Of a DNA stretch of 64,000 nt, positions 6,349 through 47,497 are shown piece by piece. The stretch is from Intestinicryptomonas porci (GTDB lineage: Bacteria; Verrucomicrobiota; Verrucomicrobiia; Opitutales; Intestinicryptomonadaceae): contig NZ_JALBUT010000004.1 in assembly GCF_033971905.1 (NCBI RefSeq), positions 136,942-200,941 of the forward strand, given 5' to 3'. Below the pieces are notes generated by a model. That model worked only from the letters and a program-made list of their open reading frames with translations. It was not told where the DNA came from and searched no databases. Within the stretch, counting starts at the first letter, position 1. Each line of letters begins with the position of its first letter. Position numbers and translations under genes: made by a program.

Positions 6349-6399
6349 GTCTTTGTAAATTCTTATAAAGCTTGACGATTGGGGGATATAAATCCATTT

Positions 6400-7584: not shown

Positions 7585-7585
7585 A

Positions 7586-8050
7586 ATGTATGAGCTTGAA
7601 GAGTTGTTGCCGCACGGCGCGCCGATGATAGTTTTAAGCGGTGTAAGAAGTTGCGATATCGAAAATTCAAAAGTCGAAACATTCTTCACTGTTTCTTCTT
7701 CCGACGTTTTTTTTGATGAAAATTCGGGCGGAGTGCCGTCTTGCTTTGCTCTCGAATACATGGCGCAGTCGATAGCCTGTTTCGTTGGAATTTTGGGGAA
7801 AAGCAAAGATGCGTCGTTTAAGCAGGAAATCGGCTTTGTCTTGGGAACTCGCAAAATGGATTTGAATATTCCTGTGTTTGAAAATTCAAAGACTTACAGC
7901 GTCAGAGCCGAAAAGGTGTTTTTCGACGAAGAGATGGCTTCGTTTGAATGCGCCATTTTCGACGAAAACAATTTTGAATGCGCCTTGGCAACGGTTAATG
8001 CATTCAAGCCCAAAAACCCGTTAAAATTCTTAAATCAAAACAATGAATAA
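7586..8050 (+). CDS. hotdog-fold (3R)-hydroxyacyl-ACP dehydratase-like protein
   Basis: The 154-aa ORF starts 2 nt after the KAS stop. Its size and position are typical of FabA/FabZ-like dehydratases in APE clusters. Confidence 0.55.
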   Translation: MYELEELLPHGAPMIVLSGVRSCDIENSKVETFFTVSSSDVFFDENSGGVPSCFALEYMAQSIACFVGILGKSKDASFKQEIGFVLGTRKMDLNIPVFENSKTYSVRAEKVFFDEEMASFECAIFDENNFECALATVNAFKPKNPLKFLNQNNE

Positions 8051-9997: not shown

Positions 9998-10911
9998 GAT
10001 TTAAAGAAGTCGAAAAAATTAAACCACTGCAAGGGGGTATCGAGAGCGGATTTTTCCAAAAACGCGGCGTATTCCCTTGCGAGGTTTTCTCCGCGCCTTT
10101 TTGACTTTGCAAACTCTGCCATTTTGATTGTCGCAAAATATTTTCCATTTTTTTCCGCGCAGTTTGCGAAAAACACGGGGCGTTTTAGCATTTCGGCAAG
10201 CTGGAAAACTCCGCTTGGCAGATTGCATTTTTTGCCCAAAACAATTTCTTCGAAAAACTTTTCGGGGGCGCGTTTTGAAAGCCTGTCGCCCGCTGCGATA
10301 ATCAAATTTCCCCGTTCAAGCTCGGCGTCAAGATGTCCGAAAGTCGCGATGTTTATGTTTGAGACGTCCAAGAAATGGAAAGAATTTTCTTTTGATTTTG
10401 AAAGAAATTCCGTTCTGAAAATAGATTCCGACCAATTTTCGACAAGGGCGAAGATTTCGGGTTTTCGCGTTCCGAAAGCCGCCGCTCCGTTTGTGCCGAG
10501 AACTTCAAAATTGCCAATGTGCGAAAAAATCAAAAATGCGCCTTTCCCCGAATTTACAAGCGTTTTAAATTCTTCCGCGTCGTGGGAATTTTCAAAAAAA
10601 ACGCAATTTTTCGGAATGCGCCCCGACAGCGAAAGCATTTTATCGAGCATCGAAAGCGCGTAGTTATAGATAAGCCTGAAAACTCTCGGCTTGGTCGGAC
10701 TTATTTCTCTTCTTTTTTCAAATTCGTTCAAAACGCCGAAAAATTTTTTTGCGGAAGTTCTCGCTTCCGCCAAAAACGGGTATGCGCAAACGACAATGAA
10801 AAATATCAGAAACCGCGCGGCTCTGCGCCCAAAAACAATGCAAAACCACCAGACGATTTTTATCCTTAAAACGCCCGCGCATTTCTCTTTCTGGTTGAAC
10901 CATTCGCTCAT
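9994..10911 (-). CDS. LpxL/HtrB-family (lipid-A-type lauroyl/myristoyl) acyltransferase, ApeD-like
   Basis: SHIGNFEV matches the HxGNxE/HX4D-type motif of the LpxL family, and the N-terminus is a membrane anchor. Its stop codon overlaps the convergent KAS stop. Confidence 0.65.
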   Translation of the reverse strand: MSEWFNQKEKCAGVLRIKIVWWFCIVFGRRAARFLIFFIVVCAYPFLAEARTSAKKFFGVLNEFEKRREISPTKPRVFRLIYNYALSMLDKMLSLSGRIPKNCVFFENSHDAEEFKTLVNSGKGAFLIFSHIGNFEVLGTNGAAAFGTRKPEIFALVENWSESIFRTEFLSKSKENSFHFLDVSNINIATFGHLDAELERGNLIIAAGDRLSKRAPEKFFEEIVLGKKCNLPSGVFQLAEMLKRPVFFANCAEKNGKYFATIKMAEFAKSKRRGENLAREYAAFLEKSALDTPLQWFNFFDFFKS

Positions 10912-13013: not shown

Positions 13014-13552
13014 AGGGTTTCTTTAAATTCAATTTTTATTATGGTTCCGTTCGCGAGTTCGAGTCGGCATTTTTCAAGACCGGATTTTCCAAAGCAAAGA
13101 GTTGCCGATTCAAGCCCGTTTTTAATTTTTGATATTTTGGGTAAAAGTTTTATTACGGTTTCGACGTCTTCGTCTTTTAAAATTTCCGTTTTAAATTTGT
13201 CTTCCAAGTCCGAAAAATCCCCTTTGAAGAGCTTTGAGTTGCCTATGCCGAATTTTTCAAGAGACTGCCTTTTTGTCCCGCTTGAAGACGATATTTCGTA
13301 AAATTTGTCGGACGCAAAGAATGTAAATTCGTTTGGCGAAAGATTTTTCCATGTAATGCCGACTCCATGCTCAAAGCGAAAAACGCCTATGCTTTTTACG
13401 CTCACGCCAATATCGGGCATTTCCTTTTCAAGAACAAAAGAACCGATGGCAAGCTTTTTATCGGCGGCAAGTTTTTGAAGCCTCGCGGGGATTTCAGCGG
13501 CGAAAGCTTGCGCCAAGAAAAATGTCAATAAGAGCGTCAATAAAAATTTCAT
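13010..13552 (-). CDS. LolA-like outer-membrane lipoprotein carrier-fold protein
   Basis: A signal peptide (MKFLLTLLLTFFLAQAFA) precedes a ~160-aa soluble domain. Context matches the ApeG-like component. Confidence 0.45.
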   Translation of the reverse strand: MKFLLTLLLTFFLAQAFAAEIPARLQKLAADKKLAIGSFVLEKEMPDIGVSVKSIGVFRFEHGVGITWKNLSPNEFTFFASDKFYEISSSSGTKRQSLEKFGIGNSKLFKGDFSDLEDKFKTEILKDEDVETVIKLLPKISKIKNGLESATLCFGKSGLEKCRLELANGTIIKIEFKETL

Positions 13553-13947
13553 TGTAAAATCCGTTCTTTTATTTTTGCGGGCAGTTCAAAGCATGATGTC
13601 TTTGATTTAATGTTTACGCACATCTGTTTTGTTTCTGCCGAGCATATTTTTTCGCCGCTTTTGAAATCTTTTGCGATGTATTTTATGTGCAGGAAATTTT
13701 CGCTCGGAACAATCTTTGCAGATACTGAAAGCTCCTGTCCGAACTCAGAAGGGCTTATGTATTTTACGCTCATCTTGACCACAGGGAAAGCGTATCCGAG
13801 CCTTTCCATTTCGCGGTAGTCAAGCCCGATTTTTTCGAGCAGGGCGCATCTTGCCTTTTCAAAATATTTTATATAGTTTCCGTGCCAAACCACCTGCATT
13901 GGGTCGAGATCGTAAAACGGAACTTTTATTTTTACCGACGCTTCCAT
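13549..13947 (-). CDS. 4HBT/YbgC-like acyl-CoA/ACP thioesterase
   Basis: The 132-aa hotdog protein begins ...YDLDPMQVVWHGNYIKYFEKAR, which matches the thioesterase family. Confidence 0.7.
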   Translation of the reverse strand: MEASVKIKVPFYDLDPMQVVWHGNYIKYFEKARCALLEKIGLDYREMERLGYAFPVVKMSVKYISPSEFGQELSVSAKIVPSENFLHIKYIAKDFKSGEKICSAETKQMCVNIKSKTSCFELPAKIKERILQ

Positions 13948-14657
13948 ATAAAAATTTTCTCTTTTAAAAATTTAAAAATCCCTTCGGCGCAGAGCAGGGC
14001 ATGCAGTGCGGAAATCGACGCGTTGTCTTTTATCATTCTGAAATTCGACGCTCCGTTTTCGGGATACTTTACAGCTACATCCATGTTTATTATTTGGCAT
14101 CCCGCCCGCGCAAGGCGGACGATGATTTCGATATCAAAGCCCATCCGCGCAAATTTAAGGCTATGCATAACCTCTGAAACTTTCTTCAGTGGATAAATCC
14201 TAAATCCGCACATGGCGTCGCGTATTTTTACCCCCGGAACTTCAAGGGCAACCCAGAAATTCGTAATTTTCCTTCCGTAAAACCTCGAAGCGGGAGCATT
14301 TTCGTAAACAGGGCATCCGTTTATAACGGCATCTGGATTTTCCACCGACGCCTTTTTGAAGTCTTCAAATGAGCCAATGCCGTGCTGTCCGTCCGCATCT
14401 ATTTGGAATACATGCGTAAAACCAAGCTCGCGCGCTTTTTCTGCGCCGCGGCAAAAAGCGGCTCCCTTTCCGAGATTTTTTTCATTTTTTGCAAAAATAA
14501 GCCCGTTTTCTTTTGCGAGGCTTTCAATCTCATTGGCTTCGCGGCTTCCGTCATCGACGAGTATCACGGGTGCGCCGAGCGACAGCAGTTTAGGCAAAAA
14601 CTCCTTAAACTGTTCTGCATGGTTGAAAATGGGAACTACTATTGCAAGATTATGCAT
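13932..14657 (-). CDS. family-2 glycosyltransferase
   Basis: The N-terminal motif APVILVDDGSRE and a DxD motif (QIDADGQH) are present. Confidence 0.75.
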   Translation of the reverse strand: MHNLAIVVPIFNHAEQFKEFLPKLLSLGAPVILVDDGSREANEIESLAKENGLIFAKNEKNLGKGAAFCRGAEKARELGFTHVFQIDADGQHGIGSFEDFKKASVENPDAVINGCPVYENAPASRFYGRKITNFWVALEVPGVKIRDAMCGFRIYPLKKVSEVMHSLKFARMGFDIEIIVRLARAGCQIINMDVAVKYPENGASNFRMIKDNASISALHALLCAEGIFKFLKEKIFIWKRR

Positions 14658-14660
14658 TTT

Positions 14661-16325
14661 TCAAAATTCCAAAACTCCCGAAGAACAGGGAAGCCCTTGT
14701 TTTGAATAGGAAAACGTGCAGGAATTTTCCCCGTTTTTTATTGAAAGCAAGACAATTTCGCGCGGTCTTATTATGTTTGAAAATTTCAGCCTTTTTACAC
14801 GCTTGGGATAATCGGTTTTGTCAAAAAGCTTTTTTGCAAAGTTAATGGCAAAGTGGAGCTGGATAGCCCCCGGCAAAATTTTTGCCATCGAGAAATGTCC
14901 GTTAAAATACGCGCTCTCGGCGGCAAAAAATATTTCCATATCCGCGCCAAAGTCGTGTTTTTTTATGTCGCAAATTATTGGCTCTTCCGTCTTCAAATTA
15001 AAATTTTTTTTAATTTCGCCCTTTAAAATTTTGCCCTGAGCGTTCGTCGGAATTGAATTTACAACCTTTATTTTTCGGAGAGAAAATTTGGAGTAGAAAC
15101 TTTCTTTTACGCGCCTGTTTATTTCGCTTAGAAGTTTCAGGCGACCGTTTTCCATAAAAAACCGCCTGCCTTCGGAATTTAAAACAATAAGCGCCCTAAG
15201 CGCATTGCCATCAAAATCCACATGGCAGTTTTCGACAAATTCGTGCGCCAAAACCGCATTTTCCATATCGGGAATATTAAGCTGTGTTTCGCCGATTTTA
15301 ACGAGCCTGTCTATGCGCCCGAAAAAATTAAATTTTCTTCCGCCGCAAAAAATTTCCACGATGTCGTTCGTCTGAAATTCTCCGCCGAGCGCGTAGGGGG
15401 ATTTGGCGAGCAGGCATCCCCGAGCGTCAATGCCGATTTCAACTTCCCCAAAAACGCTCCAAGAATCGGAAACGCCTCTGTTTCTGCTTGCAATGCCGCC
15501 GCTTTCGGTGCTTCCGAAAATCTCCGTGGGAATTGCGCCCCAAATTTCCTTTGCATCGGCGCATGCCTTTTCTTTCAAAAGCCCGCCGCTTGTCGTGATT
15601 GCAGCCACATTTTGCGGGAAATCGTAAAGCTCGCGGTGCCTTGCGACAGCTTCGATGAAAGACGGCGTTGTTATAAACAAGACTTTCTGATTTTGCTTTT
15701 GAATTGCAATAAGTGTTTCAGGATCTCTTATCGTTATTGAATGCGCGGGCATTTTTAGCGACATCGGATAAAGAAGCCTCCAAAGCATTCCATACAAATG
15801 GAAAGGCTCGCAAGTCGAAACCACCGCGCAGTCTTCAAAACGCCCCATGATACTTGCGCTGTTTTTAGTTTCATCGCTTAGAGTTGCGAAGGTTTTTTCA
15901 ATCATCTTGGGCGCGGATGTGGAGCCCGACGTAAAAAAGCACACCCTGCTTTCGCGCATATTTATAAAATCGAATTCGCATTCGGGAAGGTCTTTGGGAA
16001 TGTCGAATAAATTTGCAGAAAGCGTTTTCTTGTTGGTTATTACGGGCAGATTTTCGCTTTTTGAAAAATCTTCCGCCATCTTTTCGGAAGATGGAAGCAT
16101 GACACGCTTTTTTGCCTGCAAGAGCGCAAAGAAAAGCGTTGCAAACAAAACGGCGTCGCCTTCGACGTACAATACAAAATCTTCATGTTTGCTCCCTGCG
16201 AAATGCGAAGCGTATCTTGCAACGTCTTTTTTCATTTGCCCAAACGAAACCGAACCTTTTTCAAGCTTGAAAGCGGCAAAGTCTGAAACATTTTCCGTAA
16301 AGAAATTTTCGGGGCTAACAAACAT
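14661..16325 (-). CDS. AMP-dependent ligase (adenylation enzyme) fused to a C-terminal FabZ-like hotdog dehydratase
   Basis: The N-terminal part has adenylation motifs (FFTSGSTSAPK, FGSTESGG). The C-terminal ~130 aa carry YFNGHFSMAKILPGAIQL, resembling the FabZ motif FxGHFPxxPxMPGVL. Confidence 0.7.
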   Translation of the reverse strand: MFVSPENFFTENVSDFAAFKLEKGSVSFGQMKKDVARYASHFAGSKHEDFVLYVEGDAVLFATLFFALLQAKKRVMLPSSEKMAEDFSKSENLPVITNKKTLSANLFDIPKDLPECEFDFINMRESRVCFFTSGSTSAPKMIEKTFATLSDETKNSASIMGRFEDCAVVSTCEPFHLYGMLWRLLYPMSLKMPAHSITIRDPETLIAIQKQNQKVLFITTPSFIEAVARHRELYDFPQNVAAITTSGGLLKEKACADAKEIWGAIPTEIFGSTESGGIASRNRGVSDSWSVFGEVEIGIDARGCLLAKSPYALGGEFQTNDIVEIFCGGRKFNFFGRIDRLVKIGETQLNIPDMENAVLAHEFVENCHVDFDGNALRALIVLNSEGRRFFMENGRLKLLSEINRRVKESFYSKFSLRKIKVVNSIPTNAQGKILKGEIKKNFNLKTEEPIICDIKKHDFGADMEIFFAAESAYFNGHFSMAKILPGAIQLHFAINFAKKLFDKTDYPKRVKRLKFSNIIRPREIVLLSIKNGENSCTFSYSKQGLPCSSGVLEF

Positions 16326-16851
16326 CTTTTAAAGCCTTTCTACGCGCCAGGTATTCGAAAAAAAACATGAGCACAATTAAAATGTAAGACAAAAATCCGT
16401 TGAATGCCGCCCAAACTTCATTCGACATAAAAACGGTCGCAAGAGAACACATGGCGAGGAAAAACATAAACACCGCCCAGGCGAAAGTCGCCTTGCGCGC
16501 GTATTCTACCCCCTTTTGGGGGAGTGCTCCGCGCATTTTTTCGCCGATAATCTGAACGAGAGGCTTTTTTTTAAGCGAAAGCGCAAATACTGCCATTACG
16601 GTGAAATTCATCACAACGGGATAGAACTTGACCAACTCCGCCCTGCCAAGAACCGCCGAAAGCGCGATGACCGAAATCCCGCCAACAAGCAGGATTTTTT
16701 GGCGGTTTATGAAAAAGCCAAGCAACACCGCGATAGTCAAAACGGCAACCGCCGCTTCGCCGCATCCGCTTTTTATCGCGAAGAAAACCGCAAACGGATA
16801 GCATGCAACGACGGCGGCCGCAATGGCTTTTACTGGCGCGCTACTTTTCAT
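16315..16851 (-). CDS. integral membrane protein of unknown function (cluster-associated)
   Basis: The 178-aa product has 4-5 predicted TM helices. It overlaps both neighbours by 11 bp. Confidence 0.45.
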   Translation of the reverse strand: MKSSAPVKAIAAAVVACYPFAVFFAIKSGCGEAAVAVLTIAVLLGFFINRQKILLVGGISVIALSAVLGRAELVKFYPVVMNFTVMAVFALSLKKKPLVQIIGEKMRGALPQKGVEYARKATFAWAVFMFFLAMCSLATVFMSNEVWAAFNGFLSYILIVLMFFFEYLARRKALKDVC

Positions 16852-17092
16852 TCACAAGCTTTTCGACAATATCGACCACTTCGCCAAACGTTCTGATTTT
16901 CTTGAAATCTTCCGGATTTACGCGCTTTTTTGTCTTTTGCTGCAAGCGCACCACCAAATCGACCGCGTCTATCGAATCCAAATCAAGTTCCGTAAACAGG
17001 TTCGTGGAGTCGCTTATAGAGCTTTTTTCGCATTCAAACTCTTCGGAAAGAATGTCTTTTATAGAATTTGCAATTTCTTCTCTTGTTGCCAT
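16841..17092 (-). CDS. acyl carrier protein
   Basis: The 83-aa product has the phosphopantetheine attachment motif LDLDSIDAVDLV. Confidence 0.85.
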   Translation of the reverse strand: MATREEIANSIKDILSEEFECEKSSISDSTNLFTELDLDSIDAVDLVVRLQQKTKKRVNPEDFKKIRTFGEVVDIVEKLVNEK

Positions 17093-17096
17093 GTTT

Positions 17097-17369
17097 TTAT
17101 TTTGTTTGGGTTGATAAATTTTTTATGATGTAGTCGGCTATCGTATCCACCGAAAAGAATATTTCGCTGTTGTCTTCAAATTCAGAAAACGTAACGCCGA
17201 ACTTTTTTTTGATTTCCATTCCCAACTCCAAGGCGTCTATAGAGTCCAAGCCCAGTCCGTCCTTGAAAAGCGGGGCTGTCTGCTCTATGTCGTCGGGCGA
17301 CATGTCTTCCAAATTTAGAGCGGTTATGATTAGCTCTTTTACTTGTTCAGATATTTCTTTTTTATCCAT
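17097..17369 (-). CDS. acyl carrier protein (second, tandem copy)
   Basis: The 90-aa product has the motif LGLDSIDALELG. Confidence 0.85.
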   Translation of the reverse strand: MDKKEISEQVKELIITALNLEDMSPDDIEQTAPLFKDGLGLDSIDALELGMEIKKKFGVTFSEFEDNSEIFFSVDTIADYIIKNLSTQTK

Positions 17370-17375
17370 AAGTTG

Positions 17376-18119
17376 TTATATTTTTAAAATTTCCGATATT
17401 TTTGAAGTCAAAATCCTCGACTTTTTCGCGTTGCTTAAATCGGGGTTTGCTTCCGGAAAGATTGGGGCAAATTCTTGAAGCGCAAACTTCACTGTGCGGT
17501 TTGAAACGCTCAGCGGATTGGAGGTCTTCCCCAAAATCAAAGGGTCGCAAGTTATGCGCACGGGAATGACGTGGCAGGCTGTTTTTATCGCAATCCGCGC
17601 GGCTCCCGAATGCACTTTTTTGCGGGGATTGTCGCTGCGCGTGCCTTCTGGGAAAATTATGACATTTATTCCGCTTCTTATCGCGTCCGCCGCCTTGTCG
17701 ATTGATGAAATATCGAACTCCTTTGTGGGAATAAATATGCTCCTTACAATAGGCCTAAGCAAAATATTGCGAAGAAGAGACTCTTTTACGATGCAAACCG
17801 AGTTTTCATAGGAGCTCATCAAAAACACGATGTCAAGCAGAGTGGGGTGGTTTGCGGCAATTACAACTCCCCTGTGCGAAGAGTTCAAATTTTTCTTTTC
17901 AAGCTTTATCAAACGGAAAAACTCCAATCCGCCGACAAAAAATTTCCACGACAACCTTAACGCAGATATTGCATGTTCCTTTGAAAACAGCATGGCAACG
18001 GGAACAACCACTATCCCCATCAAAAAGCCGCCGACTCCGAACAATGCAAAGAATATTGCGGTTAAAACTGAACGCAAGAACGTCATACTGCCGATTTTAA
18101 TTTCAAAAATTTGCCGCAA
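17376..18119 (-). CDS. PlsC-family 1-acylglycerol-3-phosphate acyltransferase-like protein
   Basis: Both family motifs are present (AANHPTLLD for NHxxxxD, and FPEGTRS), after an N-terminal TM anchor. Confidence 0.7.
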   Translation of the reverse strand: MRQIFEIKIGSMTFLRSVLTAIFFALFGVGGFLMGIVVVPVAMLFSKEHAISALRLSWKFFVGGLEFFRLIKLEKKNLNSSHRGVVIAANHPTLLDIVFLMSSYENSVCIVKESLLRNILLRPIVRSIFIPTKEFDISSIDKAADAIRSGINVIIFPEGTRSDNPRKKVHSGAARIAIKTACHVIPVRITCDPLILGKTSNPLSVSNRTVKFALQEFAPIFPEANPDLSNAKKSRILTSKISEILKI

Positions 18120-18742
18120 ATTTCTCCGCCGTTTTCAAAAAAGCATTTTAATTTTTCAAAACTCATCGGCTCTACCGAAAAATTGCCGAATTCGACGCAA
18201 ATTTCGCCGCTTTCGCAATTTTCACAATAAAACGCCAGCCCGCAAGGCGGCGCACTTTCGCCGTCAATCATATCAAGCAGCGGCTCCTGTGCATATACAA
18301 ACAAAACTTTGCCCGTTTCCAAAAAGGCTTCAACCAATCCCGCTTCGAGAGAATTTTCGCCCGCGGCAATGGCAGTGTAGGGAGACTTGTTCTTTTCAAC
18401 AATCGAAAACATACCCATCGGGAAATTGTGCACCGAAGAAGAAAAACCGTTCGGAGAAACGCCCATACCCGAGTTTAAGGAGTCGAAAAGCTTAATGCAG
18501 TCGTTCAAACAGCCGTATCTCGATGCAAAAACAGACTTGTAGCCGCTTTTGCCGCCCGCAAGGGCATTCGCCAATTGAAAAACGATTTTGCCCGTTAGGT
18601 CAAGCTTGCGCCTTGCAAGCATCGGCAAAAACGAAACATCCGGCGACGCTCCTTCAAAAATTTTAAATCCTTTAATTTTAATGGGCATAAAAAATCTTTT
18701 TAAATAACACCCATTAACAATGCAATAATAAAATTCCGCCAT
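18083..18742 (-). CDS. short beta-ketoacyl synthase-like protein (chain-length-factor-like, ApeO-like)
   Basis: The 219-aa protein has a thiolase-fold-like sequence but no catalytic KAS triad. It overlaps the downstream acyltransferase gene by 37 bp. Confidence 0.45.
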   Translation of the reverse strand: MAEFYYCIVNGCYLKRFFMPIKIKGFKIFEGASPDVSFLPMLARRKLDLTGKIVFQLANALAGGKSGYKSVFASRYGCLNDCIKLFDSLNSGMGVSPNGFSSSVHNFPMGMFSIVEKNKSPYTAIAAGENSLEAGLVEAFLETGKVLFVYAQEPLLDMIDGESAPPCGLAFYCENCESGEICVEFGNFSVEPMSFEKLKCFFENGGEICGKFLKLKSAV

Positions 18743-28217: not shown

Positions 28218-29384
28218 TTAATCATCATACTGTAAAAACTTTACATCTCCCTTTCCCGTAAAAACGCCTTCTAATATTATGTTTTTGCAAGAAAGCGATT
28301 TAATGTCAAATTTGCGATAATATTCATTAAAGCCAATTACAAAGAAGGCAAAAGGTTCGTTTAGAGAGAAAACATCAGGTTTTTTCCCTCCACCGAAAAT
28401 GCTTGTATATAAATTTGTTGCACTTGCAACTACACCATTTCTATCAAAACGTATCTTATTTTGTGAATTTGTTTGCACAAAGTTTTTTAGCCCCAAAACG
28501 AGTTCCGCATTGAGAGAAAATATATCCTTTACCCCTAACTTTGAGATGGCCTCTATACTGTCTTTTTCTTTTGTGAAAATTTCAAAAGCAGGCATTTTAA
28601 TACGCAACTTTTTTCTTGTTGCCTTGTGGAAGAATTCGTCAAATTCTCCTTCGGTTAAGTCTCTGAAAGAATAACCGTTTTTTGGCTTTGCAAAAAGCAC
28701 ACCGCCTGAATCAAAAAAATTGTCGAATACAAATATAAACTTTTCGTTTTCGAAGTAAAAAGAATGAATATCTTTATACAAAAATTCCACATTCAATGCA
28801 TCGCTTACCGAACGATAAAACATCATTTTTTTGCTTCTATCATAAACTCTCTCCCAAAAACATTTTAAATATAAATTGCTAAACAGGAGCAAATCGAGTT
28901 TTTCAGTAGGAAGATTTATGTCGATTTTCTCGCCCATGCCAAGCGTATGTTTTTCAATGAGATTATTTATTTGTTCTGTTTGGTTTTCAGACAAATTTTC
29001 TACATGATTGATTTTACTAAAAACCGAATCAATAATATCGAGGTCTTTTATCTTTTTAAAAAAGTCTTCAGAGGCAAAAATCGCAACTCTCTTATCTATG
29101 AAATTTATTCTACTACCATGATCTTTTATGATAATTTGAGAGGGATTGTATTCGAAAAACTCATAGGAATTAAAAAGGGCTTCCAATTCTTTCAGAGCTT
29201 TGCCACTTGCAAATTTGGAAAGAATTTCAAGATGGTCGGAAAATAAAAGCGGTGAAACTAAAAAACTATCACCGTTTGAAACTTCGAGCATTTTGTCAAA
29301 ATACGCAAAATTAAACGACTTTTTCCCTGATGCAAATGCGGTAAATATATAAATAAATATCCAAAATATCAAAAACTTTTTCAT
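28218..29384 (-). CDS. serpin-like serine protease inhibitor (secreted)
   Basis: A signal peptide is followed by an N-terminal FLVSPLLFSDHLEIL block, a hinge-like NGVVASATN, and then FSLNEPFAFFVI (compare serpin F-x-x-D/N-R-P-F-L-F-x-I) and a C-terminal IILEGVFTG. Confidence 0.6.
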   Translation of the reverse strand: MKKFLIFWIFIYIFTAFASGKKSFNFAYFDKMLEVSNGDSFLVSPLLFSDHLEILSKFASGKALKELEALFNSYEFFEYNPSQIIIKDHGSRINFIDKRVAIFASEDFFKKIKDLDIIDSVFSKINHVENLSENQTEQINNLIEKHTLGMGEKIDINLPTEKLDLLLFSNLYLKCFWERVYDRSKKMMFYRSVSDALNVEFLYKDIHSFYFENEKFIFVFDNFFDSGGVLFAKPKNGYSFRDLTEGEFDEFFHKATRKKLRIKMPAFEIFTKEKDSIEAISKLGVKDIFSLNAELVLGLKNFVQTNSQNKIRFDRNGVVASATNLYTSIFGGGKKPDVFSLNEPFAFFVIGFNEYYRKFDIKSLSCKNIILEGVFTGKGDVKFLQYDD

Positions 29385-37231: not shown

Positions 37232-38563
37232 TTAGTACGCGCTTGCGGAATCCACGAGGGTAAACATCAATGTCGCCGAGCTTACGGGCTTGCCGCCAAC
37301 TTTGCATACGGCTTCCGCCGTGGCGATTTTGTTGTTTTTCACTTGCATAATTTTCGCCTCGATTTCGAGTTGGTCTCCGGGAATTACGGGTTTTCTGAAT
37401 TTCACCTTGTCCGCGCTCATAAAGAATGCGATTTTCCCTTCCGCGGATACCCTGCGGAACATCAGAATGCCCGCCGCCTGCGCCATTGCTTCGAGTTGCA
37501 AGACGCCCGGCATTACGGGATTTCCGGGGAAGTGCCCCTGAAAGAACGGCTCGTTTATCGTTACGTTTTTAATCGCAGTGATTTCGTCTTCGCCCCTTAC
37601 GTCTATTATGCGGTCTATCATTATGAATGGATAGCGATGCGGCATAAGGTCGATTATTCTGCGGATGTCCAAAAAGTTTTCAGTAAAAATTTTGGTCTGC
37701 GGCAAAGCTTCTTTTTTTTTCGGAGAGGCTTCCGCGTCTTTCATCTGCTCAAAGATTTTAGATGTAAGCTTTGCGTTGAAAGCGTGCCCGGGGCGGATTG
37801 CAATGATGTGCGCCTTCAAGCGGACGCCGAGAAGCGATATGTCGCCCAAAATGTCCAAAATCTTGTGGCGCACAAATTCGTCCTGATAGCGCAAAGGCTC
37901 TTTTGAAAGTATTTTGTCGCCTTTTATCACGATTGCGGAATCCAAACTTCCGCCCTGTATTTTCCCCATTTTAAGAAGAGCCTCTATGTCTTCGTAAACA
38001 GTGAAAGTGCGGGCGGGAGCGATGCCACTTGCATAGGTTTCGGCGTCAATGTCGAGAGAAAGGTGCTGTGTGTGAATTCCGCGGTCGTCTGCGGAAGTGC
38101 AGGTAATTTTAAGACCGTCGTAAGGAAGAGCTATTATCGAACGGTTGCCTTCGCTTATGGAAAGGGGCGATTTGAGTTCGTAATACTTTCTTTCGGCGTC
38201 CTGCTCGACAGGCTCTGCCTGTAAAATCAAATTGACGAACAATTTTGAAGATCCGTCCAAAATCGGAGGCTCGGCGGCGTTCATTTCGACATAAACATTG
38301 TCGATATCCATGCTCCAAAGGGCAGACATTACATGTTCTATCGTATGGAGCTTGACGTGCCCCTGCGCTATGCTCGTGTTGCGTACGAGGTCGTCAACAA
38401 GCTCTATCGACGGCTTTATTTCGGGCTTGCCGTAAATATCCGTGCGCCTGAAAACTATGCCTGTGTTCGCGGGCGCGGGTTTTAGCGTGAGCGTTACATT
38501 GGCGGCAGTGTGCAATGACGTGCCGCTTATGCTTACTTCCCTTAAAATAGTTCTTTGCTTCAT
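37232..38563 (-). CDS. lpxC: bifunctional UDP-3-O-acyl-GlcNAc deacetylase / (3R)-hydroxyacyl-ACP dehydratase (LpxC-FabZ fusion)
   Basis: An N-terminal LpxC fold is followed by a C-terminal FabZ domain with [23 protein letters not shown]. Confidence 0.85.
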
Positions 38564-38779: not shown

Positions 38780-41335
38780 ATGAACAGCGAAAAATTAACC
38801 GAAAAAACCATAGAAGCGATAAACGCCGCGCGCAACCTTGCGCAGTTGAACGCAAACAGCGAGCTTAACTGCATACATTTGCTTTCAGCCCTCGTTTCTC
38901 AAAAAGACGGCGTCGTGGGCGCGCTTTTGGACAAAACTTACGGCTTGAAGTCCTCAATCGAGATGGGGCTTTCGAGACTCGTAAAAGCCCTTCCCTCTGT
39001 AAAGGGGGCAAGTGGCGAAGTTTATTTAAGCCCGTCATTTTCTTCGGCGATGGCCCGTGCAGAGGCAATCGCAAATTCGATGAAAGACGAGTTTGTTTCA
39101 ACCGAACACCTTTATCTTGCAATTTTGGAAAAGCCTGAACCCTCCGAGCTTGCAAACCTCTTGAAGGCAAACCAAATTTCTTACGACGGCGCGCTAAGCC
39201 AAATCAAGGAAATGCGCGGAACAAGCCGCGTCACAAGCAAAACGCCCGAAGCCACTTACGAAGTCCTTGAAAAGTACGGCTCCGACTTGGTTCAACTAGC
39301 AAAAGACGGCAAGCTCGACCCCGTAATCGGCAGGGACGACGAAATCCGCCGCGTCGTACGCATACTTTCGAGAAAGACAAAGAATAACCCCGTTTTAATC
39401 GGCGAGCCGGGCGTCGGTAAAACCGCGATTGCCGAAGGGTTGGCCCAGAGAATAGTGCGCCAGGACGTCCCCGAAAATTTGAGGGACAAGACGATTTTTG
39501 CACTCGACATGGGCTCACTCATCGCGGGCGCGAAATACAGGGGCGAATTTGAGGAAAGACTGAAAGCCGTATTAAACAAGATAAAGGAAAGCAACGGAAA
39601 AATAATCCTTTTCATCGACGAGCTGCACACAATCGTGGGCGCAGGTAAAACGGAAGGCTCTTTGGACGCTTCGAATATGTTAAAGCCGATGCTCGCGAGG
39701 GGCGAACTGCGTTGTATAGGCGCAACCACCCTTGACGAGTACCGCCAGTACATAGAAAAAGACGCGGCGTTGGAACGCAGATTTCAAAGTGTGTTCGTGC
39801 CTGAGCCGAGTGTTGAAATCACAATTGCCATTTTGCGCGGCATAAAAGAAAGGCTCGAAACCTACCACGGCGTACAAATTCTCGACAAGGCTCTTGTCGA
39901 AGCTTCCGTTTTGTCGGACAGGTACATTTCGGGCAGACAGCTTCCCGACAAGGCAATCGACTTGGTTGACGAAGCTTGCGCGAGAATTAAAACCCAAATG
40001 AACTCGATGCCCGCCGAACTCGACGACATGCTCCGCCAAGTCATGCAGCTTGAAATCGAAGAAGCCGCGCTTTTGGGCGAAAAGAACGACGCCGACAAGT
40101 CCCGATTGGAGGAACTGCGCAAAACCCTCGCCGACTTGCGCGAAAAGTCTTCCGCATTGAAGGCGAGATGGGAAGAAGAAAAGAATACGGCAAATCTGGC
40201 GGGCAAACTCCGCGAACAGCTGGAACAGGCAAACATCAGAATGGCGAAAGCCGAACGCGACTATGACCTGACAACTGCCGCTGAAATCAAGTACGGCGAA
40301 ATTCCTAAACTAGAAGCAGAACTTAAAAAAGCCGAAAAAAAGGCTAAAAAGGACGACAAGCTCGTAAAAGAAAACGTCGGCCCCGAAGAAATTGCGGACG
40401 TCGTAAGCGAATGGACGGGCATTCCCGTAAACAAGCTTGTGGAAAGCGAACGCGAAAAGATTTTGCATCTTCCCGAACTTCTGCATAAGCGCGTCATCGG
40501 ACAGGACGAAGCCATAAAAAGTGTCTCAAACGCCATACTCCGCTCTCGCGCGGGTATAAAAGACCCGAAAAGACCTACGGGAACTTTCATGTTCTTAGGA
40601 CCCACGGGCGTCGGCAAAACGGAGCTTGCAAAAGCCCTCGCCTCAACTTTGTTCGACAGCGAAGAAAACATCGTGAGAATTGACATGAGCGAGTACATGG
40701 AAAAGCATTCCGTCTCGCGTTTGATTGGTGCGCCCCCGGGATACGTCGGCTTTGAACAAGGCGGGCAGCTGACCGAGGCAGTCCGCCGCCGCCCCTACTC
40801 CGTCGTGCTTTTCGACGAAATAGAAAAGGCGCACCCCGATGTCCTCAACACGCTTTTGCAGGTTATGGACGACGGCATTTTGACAGATTCCCAAGGCAGG
40901 AGGGTCGATTTCAAAAACACGGTCATAATAATGACTTCGAATATCGGGGCGCGTTTCATAACAGATGCCAAAATCGAAAAAGACGGATCGCTTAACCGCG
41001 CGTCTTCCGAAGCCGTAACAAGCGAACTTCGCGGATACTTCAAGCCGGAATTCCTAAACAGAATAGACGACATCATAATCTTCAAGGCCTTGACGCAGGA
41101 CCAAATCGAATCAATCGTAAAACTGCACATCGATATGCTGAACAAACGCCTTGCAAGGCAGAAGATTACGATAGAAGTAACAAAGCCTACTCTCGACAAT
41201 CTCGCAATCGAAGGCTACGATCCCGCCTACGGCGCGCGCCCGCTGCGCAGGCTGATTGACCAGAAGATTGAAACTCCGCTTGCACACGCAATTGTTTCAG
41301 GAGAAATAAAAGAAGGCGGCGTCTTTAAGGTTTAA
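38780..41335 (+). CDS. clpB: ATP-dependent chaperone ClpB
   Basis: Two AAA+ modules are present ([15 protein letters not shown] and [15 protein letters not shown]), separated by a long coiled-coil middle domain. The product is 851 aa. Confidence 0.9.
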
Positions 41336-41358
41336 ACTTAAATCCCAAAAACGGAAAG

Positions 41359-41396
41359 GCGGGGACAGCAAAAAGCAGTCCCCGCCTCGTTTTATT
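41359..41396 (+). terminator. rho-independent terminator after clpB
   Basis: The 9-bp stem ggcggggac/gtccccgcc is followed by tcgttttatt. Confidence 0.7.
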
Positions 41397-41411
41397 GACT
41401 ATAAGAAGAAA

Positions 41412-41672
41412 TTATAAAAGCGAATAAAGGAGGTACAAGAAATAGAGTGTTGCCGCAGTGCCCATCAGCATTAAAAGTGAAATGTTAAGCCCCATTTTGT
41501 ACGAGCCGTTGTTTTCGCTTTCGGAAGTATCGACTGCCGTAAAATTCAGCTTGTAAAATCTAAAACACAAGAACGCAAAAATCACAACAAGGCTTGCGGA
41601 GACCAAAAATCCCTGCGAAAACACGACTTCCACAAAGAAATCCCAAAATCCGTATTCCGAGTATGAGTTCAT
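41412..41672 (-). CDS. small two-TM membrane protein (hypothetical)
   Basis: The 86-aa ORF has a purine-rich aaggaaagaaag 5' of the ATG and two predicted TM helices. Confidence 0.3.
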   Translation of the reverse strand: MNSYSEYGFWDFFVEVVFSQGFLVSASLVVIFAFLCFRFYKLNFTAVDTSESENNGSYKMGLNISLLMLMGTAATLYFLYLLYSLL

Positions 41673-41746
41673 CTTTCTTTCCTTAGAAAGAGCCTTCGGG
41701 CTTTACACCCGAAGGCCCCGTATCCTATTTTATACCTATAAAAAAT

Positions 41747-41869
41747 CTACTTTCTTCTGCGGTACGCCGCAAACGCAAGAGCAACCGCACCGAAAATTGC
41801 CGCGCAAGTAGATGGCTCAGCACTCCGCCTTGAACGCGGTAAGAGCTGCTTGCGCTGTTGGAGTCGAAT
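41747..41869 (-). pseudogene. degraded 3' remnant of a PEP-CTERM-type protein gene (no start codon; about 40 codons)
   Basis: The minus-strand translation reads ...RSAEPSTCAAIFGAVALAFAAYRRRK*, against the C-terminus of the 44537-46009 product (VPEPSTYAAIFGAIALAFAAYRRRK*). The last ~37 nt differ at 2 positions. Two in-frame stops lie upstream and no long ORF is present. Confidence 0.6.
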
Positions 41870-41911
41870 TTAACATTGTCAAAGGTTGCGACATAAAGCT
41901 CCAAAGATATG

Positions 41912-41931
41912 CGTATTGTTAATACGGTTGT
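41912..41931. repeat. 20-bp inverted repeat, left copy
   Basis: cgtattgttaatacggttgt is the exact reverse complement of 42049-42068. Confidence 0.8.
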
Positions 41932-42048
41932 TTTTTATAATATTTAATTTGTTGCTTAAAAGCCATTTATGTTATTTACATTGGCAAATGAGGATTTTTC
42001 ACAAACTAAAAAATCCTTCCCAAGCCTTTATTTTACAAATTTTTATTG

Positions 42049-42068
42049 ACAACCGTATTAACAATACG
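42049..42068. repeat. 20-bp inverted repeat, right copy (itself near-palindromic, preceded by ttgaca)
   Basis: acaaccgtattaacaatacg; the core aaccgtattaacaatacggtt is a 21-bp palindrome with one central mismatch. Confidence 0.8.
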
Positions 42069-42121
42069 GTTACCAAAAACCGCCAAATTCATTTAAACAG
42101 AAGGATGTGGTGCAAAAAAAG

Positions 42122-42150
42122 TGCGGCATTTTTTTTGCCGCGCTTTTGAT
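42122..42150 (-). terminator. rho-independent terminator after GH92 (minus strand)
   Basis: Stem gcggca/tgccgc with a T8 loop, flanked by an A7 run on the plus strand (a T-run on the minus strand). Confidence 0.6.
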
Positions 42151-42183
42151 TGCAGCACATTCTAAAATCTTCAAATTTCTGTT

Positions 42184-44436
42184 TTATCTTAATTCGCTTT
42201 TGTTCGGTCTTTCAGACATTTCAAATTCAAGAACCGCTCCCGATTTCAGCTTGTCATGCGTGATATTTAGCTTTTCATGGTTTTCCCCGTTTATTTTAAG
42301 GGATTTTACATACTTGTTTTCCCTCGAATTGTTCTTTGCGATTATCTTGATTTTTTCGCCGTTTTCAAGCGCGATTTCCGCTTCTTCGAAAAACGGAGAG
42401 CCAATTTGGTAAGTCGGCTTTCCGACGTCAGGATAAAGCCCCAACATGCTCCATACGACAAACGCGCTCATCGCTCCGCCGTCCTCGTCGCCCGGAACGC
42501 CCATCAAGTCGTCTCTAAACCAAGTGTAAACAAGCGCGCGCACCGCCTTTTGGGTCTTCCACCCCTTCCCTATCCTGTTGTACAAATACGGGATGTGAAA
42601 AGACGGCTCGTTTCCCATTGAAAACTGCCCGACATTGCCCGTTTGGTCGGGAGCATGGTTTCCCCAAAATCGCCATTTCGGAAGCCCCGTCGGAGTATGG
42701 AATGTGTCGTCCAAATTTTTCTCGAAATTTTCCGCTCCGCCCATCAAGCCGACCAAATCGAGATGCGGAGCGTCCCAGCGGTAGGTCCACGCATTGTTTT
42801 CGTCGTAATAATCCCGAAAGCCCAAGCCGCCTGAAATTCGATAATCGAAAGGCTCGATAAAGTTGCCATCAAAATCTTTAGGATGGAAAAATCCCGTTTT
42901 TTTATTGAACAAATTTTCGGCGTTTTTGGCGCGATAAAAAAAGAGCTTTTTGTTTTCCGAAAAATTGCCGCCCGTTTGTTTTGGGAAATCCCTTTCAAAA
43001 CATTCCAGCATTTTGTATGCGCACCAGTCGTCAAAACTCGCCGCAAGCGTCACCGCAACCGACTGGCGTTTTTCAAATGTATTTACTTCCGACACGCTTT
43101 CCGCTTCTCCCTGTTTTAGCGCGGGAAAATATCCGTTTTTTGAATAAAAATCGTCCAAAACAGTGCGATGCCCGCGATGCCACGGAATAATGCTTTCAGT
43201 CAAAAGAGTGTTGATGGAAAGCGAAACTGCCGCCTTGAAATCAAAGCCTCTGACGCCTTTTTGATAGGCGTCCAAAAAGCTTGCCACAACGTGATTGCCG
43301 TTCATTGCGTGGGCGTCGCCGAAAATCTGCGGAAAAGTCGGCAGCCATTTTTCGGAAGTCTGGTTTGCCATATCAATGTAGCTTTGCAACATTTGCGCCT
43401 CTTTTGAAGGCTCCAATAGGACGCGCAAGGGATGCGATGTGCGGTAAGTATCCCATATCCAGTCGTCGCAATAAAAGGGCTTGTCGGTTTCATGAACCGA
43501 ATTGTCGTATGCGCTGTAATACCTGCCGTATTCGCTAAAATCAATCATGCGCTCGAATGTGCGCCAAAACGAAGTGTAAAAGACGCGCTTCATCTCTTCG
43601 TCGCAGGATTTTATTTTTATTTTTGAAAGGGCTTCGTTCCAGATTTTATTGCCGTTTTCCTTTAATTTTTCGATGTCAAAATCGGCAATTTCCCTTTTCA
43701 AATTATTTTGCGCGCTTTCAAAATCTATGAATGAAATCCCGTATTTTACCGAAACTTTTTGAATTTCGCTTCCAAAATCCAAAACAGCGTCAGCCCCGAG
43801 CTTTGCGACAAACGGCTTCGAGGGCTTCAATAGCGGATTTTTTTCAGGCTTGCGGGTAAAATGATATATTTTTACGTCTTTGGGCTCGGCATCGAACTCC
43901 AACGAAACGTACATTTTAACATTGTCTGCCTTGCCCGTGTTTTGAATTAAATTTATCCTGTTTTTTTCAAATTTGATTTCGCCGCTATCGACTCTTATGC
44001 GGATTTTGCGGACTTCCCCCGCGGGAGAATTTGAAAAATCGAAAGCATAAAGCGCGCTTTTAAAAGACGGCGCAAACTCAACGCCTATTTCCTGCCCGTC
44101 CAAAATGGCAAAATACGAATAAGGCGAAATTTTTTCATTGTCCAAAGTCGAAACTTCGGGAACGGATTTTCCGACAAACGGCAAAATTCCGTTGCCCGAA
44201 AATATGTTGCGGTGCGACGGAGAAACAAGAGAAAAATCTTCAACAACCCAAGTCGCAAAATCCTGCCTTTTCGGATAAACCCTGAGCATGGAGTGCGGAA
44301 GCTGGATTGTCGGCAGGCTCGGCACAAGTGTATGGCTTATGTTGCCCATGTAGGGATTTACATATTTTACATAATCTTCTTGCGCGAAAATTTCGCAAGA
44401 TAACATAATTAAAAAACAAAAAACCACCCTTTTCAT
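42184..44436 (-). CDS. glycoside hydrolase family 92 (alpha-mannosidase-like), exported
   Basis: A signal peptide is followed by the N-terminal motif YVNPYMGN, as in the GH92 VNPFIGT start. The product is 750 aa. Confidence 0.75.
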   Translation of the reverse strand: MKRVVFCFLIMLSCEIFAQEDYVKYVNPYMGNISHTLVPSLPTIQLPHSMLRVYPKRQDFATWVVEDFSLVSPSHRNIFSGNGILPFVGKSVPEVSTLDNEKISPYSYFAILDGQEIGVEFAPSFKSALYAFDFSNSPAGEVRKIRIRVDSGEIKFEKNRINLIQNTGKADNVKMYVSLEFDAEPKDVKIYHFTRKPEKNPLLKPSKPFVAKLGADAVLDFGSEIQKVSVKYGISFIDFESAQNNLKREIADFDIEKLKENGNKIWNEALSKIKIKSCDEEMKRVFYTSFWRTFERMIDFSEYGRYYSAYDNSVHETDKPFYCDDWIWDTYRTSHPLRVLLEPSKEAQMLQSYIDMANQTSEKWLPTFPQIFGDAHAMNGNHVVASFLDAYQKGVRGFDFKAAVSLSINTLLTESIIPWHRGHRTVLDDFYSKNGYFPALKQGEAESVSEVNTFEKRQSVAVTLAASFDDWCAYKMLECFERDFPKQTGGNFSENKKLFFYRAKNAENLFNKKTGFFHPKDFDGNFIEPFDYRISGGLGFRDYYDENNAWTYRWDAPHLDLVGLMGGAENFEKNLDDTFHTPTGLPKWRFWGNHAPDQTGNVGQFSMGNEPSFHIPYLYNRIGKGWKTQKAVRALVYTWFRDDLMGVPGDEDGGAMSAFVVWSMLGLYPDVGKPTYQIGSPFFEEAEIALENGEKIKIIAKNNSRENKYVKSLKINGENHEKLNITHDKLKSGAVLEFEMSERPNKSELR

Positions 44437-44536: not shown

Positions 44537-46009
44537 ATGAAGTTAAAAACTTTATTTTATGCCTCTTTAATATTTACAGGCGTCTCAACAGGGCTTTTCG
44601 CCGCAGACATATGGCGCGCCCCCACCGAAGACGCTCCAGACGGAGATTGGACTGACGGTACTACTTGGGCAAGCGGAAATGTTCCGACAAGTTCCGATAC
44701 CGCCAAAATCGACAAGCTCGAATCCAATACCTATTCCAATTCCGATGTCTCAGTCGGGCGTCTGGATTTGTTTACCGGAAATGTGATTGTTTCGGGAGGG
44801 ACATTTTCGACCTCGGTTTCAATGGTTCGTGCGGGAACCCTCACGATAAGCGGAACGGCAAATTTTCAAACGACATCTGCATTTAATTCGGGCGACGGGC
44901 AAGACCATAGATATATTAGCGAAAACAAAACCGTTATAAATGTTTACGACGACGCCAAAGTTACCGACAAAAATTGGGGCGTTTTGATTGGTGAAGAAGC
45001 AAATACAATAGATTCCGTAGCCAATTTTTACGGCAATTCCGTAATTACGACAGGCAACAACAATGGCGTGAAAATCGGCAATTCGCGAACATGGGCGGAA
45101 TCTGCTACGGCGAAATCCACTTTGAATGTATTTGAAAATTCCACGGTAAACGCCTCCACTCTTTATCTCTATAAAAATGCGGAATTGAACGTTTACGGAG
45201 ACGCCATTTTTAACGCGTCAAACAAGGCTTATTTGGGCGACACGAAAACTAATACGGTTGCCAAGGTCAATTTAAAGGGCAATTCCGTAATGAATTTGAA
45301 AAGCTACTCTTTCATTTCCAATGCGGCAATAGTAACAGTCAGCGAAAACGCAACTTTGAATTTCACGCAAGACCTGTTTGTCGGAACTGCGGACAACAGA
45401 AGTTCCACCAATACTACCTCAGGGCATCTTATATTAAAGGATACTGCAAAACTTAACGCGCCAAGCTGTACTTTGATAATGTACGGCAATGATTCCACAA
45501 TCGAGCTTCACGGCTCCAACATAAAACCTGCCGACGGACAATCTTACATGGTAAACCGCCTCGGTATTACCGAACAGGCCGACAGCATCGGAACGGGAGG
45601 CACAATTAAATTTGTCGCCGACCAAAACGGCATCTCTACGTTTAAAGCGGGCTGGATAGAATATAACAATTCCACCGCGCAAACGGGATACGCCTTGGAG
45701 CTTGATTTCACAAACTTTGCACCTGCGGACGGCGAAGGAACATATTCTTTTAACGTTATTTCCTCGGTAAACAACTGGAACGGAAGAGAAGCCAGCATTA
45801 TGCAAAACTATTTTACTGAAGCCGAAATCGGCAACGAAGATCTTGTAAAAATAATAAAGGCAAACGATGCCGACTCTTACGAATTCTTTATAGCCGACGG
45901 AGGCAGAACATTCGGCATAACATATAATTATGTTCCCGAACCCTCGACATACGCGGCGATTTTCGGCGCGATTGCACTTGCGTTTGCGGCATACCGCAGA
46001 AGAAAGTAA
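44537..46009 (+). CDS. secreted repeat protein with PEP-CTERM-type C-terminal sorting signal
   Basis: A signal peptide (MKLKTLFYASLIFTGVSTGLFA) precedes a Thr/Asn/Gly/Ser-rich beta-helix-like repeat region. The C-terminus is VPEPSTYAAIFGAIALAFAAYRRRK (PEP motif, then a TM helix, then a basic cluster). Start is taken at ATG 44537; the ORF track extends upstream to 44465. Confidence 0.65.
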   Translation: MKLKTLFYASLIFTGVSTGLFAADIWRAPTEDAPDGDWTDGTTWASGNVPTSSDTAKIDKLESNTYSNSDVSVGRLDLFTGNVIVSGGTFSTSVSMVRAGTLTISGTANFQTTSAFNSGDGQDHRYISENKTVINVYDDAKVTDKNWGVLIGEEANTIDSVANFYGNSVITTGNNNGVKIGNSRTWAESATAKSTLNVFENSTVNASTLYLYKNAELNVYGDAIFNASNKAYLGDTKTNTVAKVNLKGNSVMNLKSYSFISNAAIVTVSENATLNFTQDLFVGTADNRSSTNTTSGHLILKDTAKLNAPSCTLIMYGNDSTIELHGSNIKPADGQSYMVNRLGITEQADSIGTGGTIKFVADQNGISTFKAGWIEYNNSTAQTGYALELDFTNFAPADGEGTYSFNVISSVNNWNGREASIMQNYFTEAEIGNEDLVKIIKANDADSYEFFIADGGRTFGITYNYVPEPSTYAAIFGAIALAFAAYRRRK

Positions 46010-46130: not shown

Positions 46131-46700
46131 ATGAAAAAGCTAAAAACCGTTATTTTCGCCCTGTTTTTATCAATAACGCTGATTGCAATACAGGCACAAT
46201 CTGCATTTGCAATGACACCACGCCCCGGAACCGCCGTTTTGGCGTCAGACCCAAGCGGGCTTGCGCTTAAAAACGCCGTAAAGGAACTCCTGCTTCAACA
46301 AGGTTTTAAAGTGAAAGATTTGACGGGTGAAGAACGCCAAAACTATTTTGACGTCGGATTTAATTTGGGAAAGGAAATGTCCGAAAACGACTACGATTTC
46401 GGATTTGTATTTTGCGGCACGGGCATGGGGGTGAATTTGGTCGCCAACAAATTCAGCGGCGTATTCTGCGCCCTCTGCGAAAGCGTTGAGACAGCCAGGC
46501 TTTCTCGCGTGGTAAACAATGCAAACGTTCTTGCAATGGGTGGAAAAATCGTAAATCCAGAAAAGGCAAAAGAAATGGCACTTGCGTTTATTTCAACAGA
46601 CTTTGCGAAAGACAACGACTTTCTAAACAAATCCTATAACCGCGTTGTAGAGCTATCAAAGGAAATTGCCGAAATAAACGCAAAATCTTCTAAAAAATAA
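46131..46700 (+). CDS. RpiB/LacAB-fold sugar-phosphate isomerase-like protein with an N-terminal signal peptide
   Basis: FVFCGTGMGVNLVANKFSG...LSRVVNNANVLAMGG matches the RpiB core. The N-terminal Asp-His dyad position reads SDPSG instead of CDHAG. A 27-aa signal-like leader is present, with an alternative internal start at 46212. Confidence 0.55.
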   Translation: MKKLKTVIFALFLSITLIAIQAQSAFAMTPRPGTAVLASDPSGLALKNAVKELLLQQGFKVKDLTGEERQNYFDVGFNLGKEMSENDYDFGFVFCGTGMGVNLVANKFSGVFCALCESVETARLSRVVNNANVLAMGGKIVNPEKAKEMALAFISTDFAKDNDFLNKSYNRVVELSKEIAEINAKSSKK

Positions 46701-47497
46701 TGTACGCAAAATTCTGCCTGATTTTAACGCTTCTATGCGCCGCCCCATTCGCGCTTGCGGAAATAAAAGTGCGCCCTTCGATAGACGAAGCCACTGCAAA
46801 TTCTGCGCAGTGGAACGGATTTAAAAAGACAAATTTTAAAGTGGGAAATTGCGCGGCATTCATCGTTGAACCGGAAACTCCGCGTAAAGACAAGGCGTGA
46901 GTATTGCGCCCTGCATGGTGGGGGGCTTTTGCAAATGCCGACCACGAACTTTTGAAGCAGGGTTTTTATGTGGCATTCGTTGACATGTCCTACACGGGCG
47001 CAAGCGAAGAAGCCATGAAAATTTTGGACAATATGTACGATGTCTGCACAAAAAAATACGGCTTGTCAAAAAAAGCAACTCTCGAAGGATTGAGCAGAGG
47101 CGGGCTTTCAAGCCTGATGTGGGCAAACCGTTCGCCGCAAAAACTCGCCTGTGTCTATGTTGACAATCCCGTTTGCGACGTAATGACAATATCCCCGAAT
47201 TTCATAGAGGAAATACGCAGGGAATGGGGCTTGGAGAATATGCAAAACTTCAAGGGAAGCCCTATTCACAACTATAAAAAACTTGCAAAAAGCAAAGTCC
47301 CCGTGCTTTTCATTGCGGGGCTTTTGGACGAAACAGTGCCGAACGCCACAAACGCAAAGCCGTACGTCGAAGCTTTCAAAAAAGCGAAGGGCTCGATAAA
47401 ATATGTTGGGAAACCCGACGGCAAACACCATCCGCACGGCTTGCAAAATCCCGCACTGATTGTGGATTTCATAAAATCGGCGTACGGCAAAATCTAA
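46700..47497 (+). pseudogene. exported alpha/beta-hydrolase (esterase/peptidase-like) interrupted by an in-frame TGA at 46898-46900
   Basis: ORFs 46700-46900 and 46904-47497 are in the same frame. The upstream part carries the signal peptide and the downstream part carries the GLSRGG nucleophile elbow. Confidence 0.55.

Follow-up and report, generated by a model that had tools for sequence, protein, structure and literature searches.

The window, that is, the whole 64,000-nt stretch of DNA analysed here, carries between clpB and a GH92 gene a short minus-strand frame at 41747-41818 that translates to EPSTCAAIFGAVALAFAAYRRRK*. Translation and alignment place this PEP-CTERM sorting tail, (A)EPSTCAAIFGAVALAFAAYRRRK with its stop codon at 41747-41749, over 41747-41820 (-). 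As the sequence-only reading had it, there is no start codon in the frame of the tail; in-frame stops appear ∼40 codons upstream in the translation. On the other side of GH92 lies an intact gene for a 490-aa PEP-CTERM protein (44537-46009, +; TIGR02595 20.9 bits, above the cutoff of 16), and its 3′-end forms with the tail a 71-nt inverted repeat of 86% identity that flanks GH92 (arms 41748-41818, -, and 45938-46008, +). The match has E=4e-18 in blastn within the window, and a 56-nt degenerate pattern finds exactly these two places in the window with 0 expected (none in 100 shuffles); the similarity previously described as ∼37 nt with 2 mismatches is therefore real and longer. The fragment alone scores 14.1 bits against TIGR02595, below the cutoff of 16, and so falls under the curated threshold for a PEP-CTERM sorting domain (TIGR02595/PF07589). 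Its motif reads AEPS, the first P having been lost at a deletion junction, and the hydrophobic helix and the terminal RRRK are kept. No exosortase was found among the window ORFs scanned.

Downstream of the remnant, a strong stem-loop (41689-41719, -; -27.8 kcal/mol, z=-4.8) lies between its stop codon and an 86-aa ORF; a terminator-like hairpin had been proposed at 41707-41731, and the hairpin exists at the corrected position. The stem-loop is kept downstream of the tails in L082, L085, L092 and the second module of L083 (M2, below), where L-numbers denote the contigs or genomes compared. The 86-aa ORF (41412-41672, -), with two hydrophobic helices, is the conserved downstream neighbour of a strain-variable slot and gave no family match. 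It is kept in six strains, with variable sites by codon position of 5/1/12, mostly third, and is absent from the L081/L095/L101 alleles. A search of 41300-42250 against Rfam returned nothing near threshold.

We then compared the locus among strains. Exact-protein look-ups matched ClpB and RpiB of the window and gave no match for the GH92, 490-aa and 86-aa proteins; the ClpB look-up led to sister-strain contigs with 100% identical ClpB and the same gene order. In sister strains a 512/513-aa PEP-CTERM gene stands intact at the position of the remnant and in its orientation, which bears out the earlier view that a PEP-CTERM paralogue adjoining GH92 has decayed, and answers the comparison with orthologous loci that had been proposed as a check. 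The intact protein has a signal peptide (MKNTQKIIVALGTSLLFQGAYVFA), FxxN/GGA repeats and a tail ending in ...IPEPSTCAAIFGA(V/I)ALAFAAYRRRK, and it matches Pfam Chlam_PMP at 29 bits (cutoff 20.6). In these FxxN/GGA-type repeats, above the Pfam cutoff, and in belonging to a multi-copy, variable family, the parent resembles the chlamydial polymorphic membrane protein (Pmp) adhesins, whereas it is anchored by a PEP-CTERM tail instead of an autotransporter beta-barrel.

Against the gene in L083, the window aligns as three colinear blocks in the right order between clpB/86-aa ORF and GH92. The first (41935-41893) is 5′ flank and UTR, 100% identical to L083, and includes a 5′UTR stub of the 513-type allele at 41893-41911 (-) (CATATCTTTGGAGCTTTAT, by alignment to the intact alleles) with a -10-like CATATC at 41906-41911. 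The second (41894-41819, -), a 76-nt internal piece of the PMP-repeat gene, corresponds to codons ∼154-178 (ATFDNVKFDSNSASSSYRVQGGVL) and to L083 12551-12476 at 98.7%; through this block, read in another frame, the remnant extends beyond the limits first given to it, up to 41894. The third (41820-41743) is the tail and matches L083 11543-11467 at 93.6%. Missing between the first two blocks are 484 nt, comprising part of the 5′UTR, the ATG and codons 1-153, so that the window has lost what comes after the stub in intact alleles, namely the TATAAT box, the start codon and the signal peptide. Between the last two blocks 932 nt are missing, from codon ∼178 to ∼487, up to the PEP motif. Because 932 is not a multiple of 3, the 76 nt of body and the 74-nt tail that are left stand in different frames. 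Neighbouring blocks overlap by 2 nt at both junctions (AT at 41893-41894, CT at 41819-41820), which indicates that two deletions at microhomologies gave rise to the window allele. The idea that a V-PEPS motif had been broken by the loss of 1 nt (GTGCCTGAG to GTGCTGAG) was rejected, as the intact allele shows the 932-nt deletion.

Colinear with the intact gene at the orthologous position, with neither start codon nor signal peptide and with its frame disrupted, the remnant is an ordinary pseudogene. From these alignments, 41747-41911 (-) is almost certainly what is left, after two deletions, of a dead gene for a secreted PMP-repeat PEP-CTERM protein of ∼513 residues. Whereas the parent and neighbouring genes have the full PEPS...RRRK signal, the remnant has lost, besides the first P, the signal peptide and the whole passenger domain, and only 25 residues of one Pmp-type repeat survive. 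Homology search with the repaired 54-aa remnant returned just 4 short tail-bearing ORFs. In the one close relative found by a genome scan with GH92, a related species (L001, an Opitutales MAG and the closest species-level genome; GH92 87% identical), the whole 848-nt interval 41336-42183 is absent and the GH92 stop lies 60 nt from the clpB stop.

Just upstream of the remnant lies an inverted repeat with perfect 19-nt arms (41912-41930 and 42050-42068; 0 expected by chance) that bounds a short intergenic segment. The arms belong to 19–21-bp palindromic sites, inverted with respect to each other and enclosing ∼140 bp (41912-42068), and each is a near-palindrome of the form AACCGTATT-N3-AATACGGTT whose centre, AAC or GTT, is opposite in the two. 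On the gene strand the candidate proximal recombination site (41912-41930) reads CAACCGTATT-AAC-AATACG, two half-sites that form a near-palindrome around an asymmetric centre. The candidate distal site (42050-42071) reads AACCGTATT-AAC-AATACGGTT on the + strand and is a perfect 9-3-9 palindrome; reverse-complementing the proximal centre gives the distal one. Between them lies the putative invertible segment (41931-42049), with a TTGACA at 42046-42051 (+) that points away from the remnant in the orientation of the window, which we call state A. The GH92 gene is separated from this element by its own intrinsic terminator (GCGGCAAAAAAAATGCCGC plus a T-run; 42123-42141, -).

Both orientations of the segment occur in nature, as seen between samples. 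At this locus state A was found in L082, L084, L085, L083 and L101, and the inverted orientation (state B) in L081/L094, L095 and L096; between samples, six contigs are in state A and three in state B. One and the same allele, 97.5% identical between L101 and L081, has the segment in opposite orientations in these two contigs. A second locus elsewhere in the genome, with a 72%-identical homologue, behaves likewise, with state A in L103 and state B in L104; the gene is 95.8% identical between them. The same site pairs, 139–142 nt apart, stand upstream of two further PEP-CTERM genes (M2 in L083 and M3 in L091), and a fifth module begins downstream of the gene in L108. The four modules that could be aligned keep the sites, a TTGACA at one end of the segment and CAT(A/T)(T/C)(T/C)TTT outside the proximal site, and the rest of the spacer diverges; the resulting consensus is CGTATT-N3-AATACG in pairs ∼140 nt apart with a flanking TTGACA. 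No such sites were found upstream of the more distant homologues P0009 and P0010 (37% identity). When metagenomes were scanned with the 19-mer arm, one genuine locus (L101) was recovered, together with a chance match within a coding region (L102).

These observations suggest that the ∼140-bp segment is probably a site-specific inversion switch (inverton) whose recombinase is encoded elsewhere and whose orientation differs between samples. Some details allow another reading, in which the palindromic sites are transcription-factor operators and the inversions are rare short-repeat accidents that became fixed in lineages, with no programmed phase variation. A recombinase gene was found neither within the 64-kb window nor in the fetched flanks, the orientation polymorphism was seen only between samples, and every contig with state B at the locus has one and the same mutated site: in all three copies (L081 12354-12372 region, L095 and L096) the proximal half-site CCGTATT has become CAATATT. 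The mutated half-site may have locked the orientation of these copies, and one old inversion, later fixed, would explain them. In addition, the half-site flanks of L103 and L104 deviate from the simplest prediction of a crossover at the centre. However, inversions whose limits coincide exactly with the sites are found at two independent loci, one allele stands in both orientations in L101 and L081, the pair spacing is held at 139–142 nt with opposite centres, and an asymmetric TTGACA is kept in four aligned modules whose spacers have otherwise diverged. There is also a direct precedent for such switches in Akkermansia (PMC11892184). The operator reading is thus unlikely, and we retain the inverton as the preferred explanation.

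The conserved motifs at the ends of the segment suggest how the inverton could act. When each module was flipped in silico into state B, TTGACA and CAT(A/T)(T/C)(T/C) came to lie 17 nt apart and to face the gene. Orientation B would therefore set the conserved TTGACA exactly 17 nt from the CATATY outside the site and create a sigma-70 promoter directed at the gene. A promoter consensus scan found a match of 10/12 in L104 (state B), none in L103 (state A) and nothing in the switch of the window (state A). On balance, these motif comparisons favour state B as ON and state A, that of the window, as OFF. The assignment could be reversed or wrong, because the -10 hexamers are weak (3–4 of 6) and the 513-type alleles have a separate TATAAT 24 nt before the ATG. 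If the assignment holds, the window would be in the OFF orientation, and its switch would now control only the remnant and possibly the 86-aa ORF, which would be the sole intact gene downstream of it in the window.

In classical invertible promoters, such as fimS of E. coli and the capsule promoters of Bacteroides fragilis (Mpi/Tsr), the whole promoter lies inside the segment. As there, inverted repeats bound a segment with promoter elements upstream of surface-structure genes, and a repeat consensus common to several loci implies a common recombinase; in contrast to those systems, only the TTGACA is inside here, and the site itself would form the 17-nt promoter spacer. Invertons of Akkermansia muciniphila, reportedly first described by Jiang et al. 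in 2019, are the closer likeness. That species is likewise a member of the Verrucomicrobiota from the gut, and its invertons (∼150–190 bp) show the pattern seen here: they are short, intergenic and numerous, share one inverted-repeat motif, stand upstream of PEP-CTERM sorting-domain or beta-helix surface proteins, and do not necessarily have an invertase next to them. The likeness is one of description, motif sequences aside, the present arms being 19–21-bp palindromes. The present element differs from those of Akkermansia in belonging to another order (Opitutales-like, uncultured) and in a promoter that appears split, with the -35 inside the segment and the -10 outside. Counted per genome, invertons are most frequent in Verrucomicrobia, a phylum represented in the dataset concerned by Akkermansia alone (PMC10028968). 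Akkermansia inverton group 138, which has one shared inverted-repeat motif, is enriched near PEP-CTERM sorting-domain and autotransporter-type proteins and flips over time in mice (PMC11892184), whereas the orientation differences reported here are between samples only. An inverton next to PEP-CTERM genes is thus already known in Akkermansia, and the present one is in a different, uncultured order; its split-promoter layout and the cassette-like slot behind it may be variants of the known Akkermansia kind.

Among strains the contents of the slot between clpB and GH92 vary: it may hold a gene of the 513 type, one of 329 aa that is unrelated to it, a gene of a third type, or remnants. A 512-aa gene occupies it in L081, L095 and L101; an 85-aa ORF, a short decayed gene and a 513-aa gene in L083; and an 85-aa ORF with the unrelated 329-aa PEP-CTERM gene in L082, L084 and L085. 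In L092/L093 a third allele type, whose gene also occurs in L091, lies beside the 85-aa ORF. The alleles share their 3′ flank, consisting of the 85/86-aa ORF where present, the stem-loop and the tail, and their 5′ flank, which reaches from GH92 to ∼10 nt beyond the proximal site; the allele-specific DNA begins at that point and ends in the tail. The tail of the window is a mosaic whose 5′ half is of the 513 type and whose downstream flank is of the type found beside the 85/86-aa ORF, which indicates recombination between tail copies. L083 keeps both tail types as direct repeats ∼440 nt apart, and the flanks of the window are ∼99% identical to those of strains with the 329-aa allele, yet its remnant is of the 513 type. 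This arrangement points to the slot as a probable recombination hot spot; the homology for allele replacement and deletion is, we infer, supplied by two conserved parts, the tail and the upstream element.

Further rearranged or decayed copies were seen in these contigs. Between the 85-aa ORF and the 513-aa gene of L083 (10892-11475) lies the second complete switch module (M2), whose two sites are at 11236 and 11375. After it comes a degraded mini-gene with a signal peptide, a frameshift and a PEP-CTERM tail, a deletion derivative of the L091/L092-type gene. In L091 an in-frame TAA (5716-5718) splits a PEP-CTERM gene of ∼428 codons into calls of 275 and 58 aa (P0003); the 58-aa call is also present in L092/L093, and the upstream context in L091 (YchF, ResB, CcsA) is unlike that of the window. 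Five independent assemblies (L086-L090) end 34–84 nt past clpB, as might be expected if single samples contain strains that differ at the variable slot. Contig L108 starts (1-30) and ends (1897-1938) with the same distal-site sequence (AATACGGTTGTCAACAAAAATTTGTAAAA), which implies tandem units of switch plus PEP-CTERM gene that break assemblies.

The inverted repeat around GH92 had originally been taken to mean that the remnant is a local copy of the 3′-end of the 44537-46009 gene, placed there by duplication or inversion around GH92 and then degraded. Its one favourable point is that repeat itself, 71 nt at 86% on both sides of GH92. In a matrix of the 72-nt tails, the remnant matches the tails of the 512/513-aa genes at 67/72 and that of the neighbour at 61/72, and non-allelic tails of the lineage match one another at 55–65/72, so the likeness to the neighbour does not rise above background. 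When the 513-aa parent, a different protein, is compared with the 490-aa neighbour by BLASTP, the alignment is confined to the last 25 residues, i.e. the sorting tail, and nothing is shared beyond it. A second match to the neighbour (41880-41904 versus 45695-45719; LELYVATF versus LELDFTNF) was set aside as chance level (blastn, E=0.3). Because 61/72 lies within the background and the tail alone is shared, the 86% similarity is lineage-wide nucleotide conservation of PEP-CTERM tails. Neither a duplication nor an inversion of the gene is needed, since the intact gene of sister strains has the orientation of the remnant and its decay is accounted for by two microhomology deletions. Of the original interpretation, then, the decayed paralogue stands and the duplication from the neighbour and the gene inversion do not; an origin from the neighbouring gene is highly improbable. 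For annotation, nucleotide likeness between PEP-CTERM tails is accordingly no sign of recent local duplication.

An assembly artefact, in which sequences of mixed strains in a metagenome were collapsed or joined into a chimera, might be suspected where assemblies so often break (L086-L090 just after clpB, L096 and L108 inside the switch), but it is hardly credible given junctions with only 2 nt of identity, far under any assembler k-mer, three blocks in correct colinear order, and comparable natural remnants in other samples (the M2 mini-gene of L083 and the in-frame stop of the L091 gene).

Taken together, the locus is very probably best explained as a double-deletion remnant whose slot varies between strains and is preceded by a probable inverton, presumed to be OFF. 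The remnant itself, yet another surface-protein gene that has decayed, is of little importance. Its context is of more use: it reveals, in an uncultured Verrucomicrobium of the gut, a slot for surface proteins that varies between strains and is probably phase-variable, and it extends the link between invertons and PEP-CTERM proteins beyond Akkermansia. A wider scheme can be proposed only tentatively: an uncultured, Opitutales-like lineage of the human gut may use split-promoter invertons at multiple loci (-35 inside, -10 outside, the site as 17-nt spacer), with the 5′ inverton and the 3′ PEP-CTERM tail as portable homology handles by which whole bodies of surface proteins are swapped, stacked in tandem or deleted from one strain to another, the window allele being a decayed product. 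The site consensus can be searched for in genomes and reads, which would lead to a map of the regulon and to the recombinase.

Several other features of the window were recorded. At 46700-47497 (+), an S9/alpha-beta-hydrolase gene is broken by an in-frame TGA (TGG to TGA, 46901-46903). The gene is intact (265 aa) in L082, L095 and L099, and in L081 it carries an independent 1-nt deletion a few codons from the position of the window TGA; it has therefore been inactivated more than once. A cluster at ∼6379-18742 encodes ketoacyl synthases, an ApeP-like dehydratase, a ketoreductase, a thioesterase, a GT2 protein, an AMP-ligase with an ApeI-like domain and an acyltransferase, and resembles an aryl-polyene-like lipid biosynthesis locus. 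The minus strand also carries a bacterial serpin gene at 28218-29384 and a fused LpxC-FabZ gene at 37232-38563.
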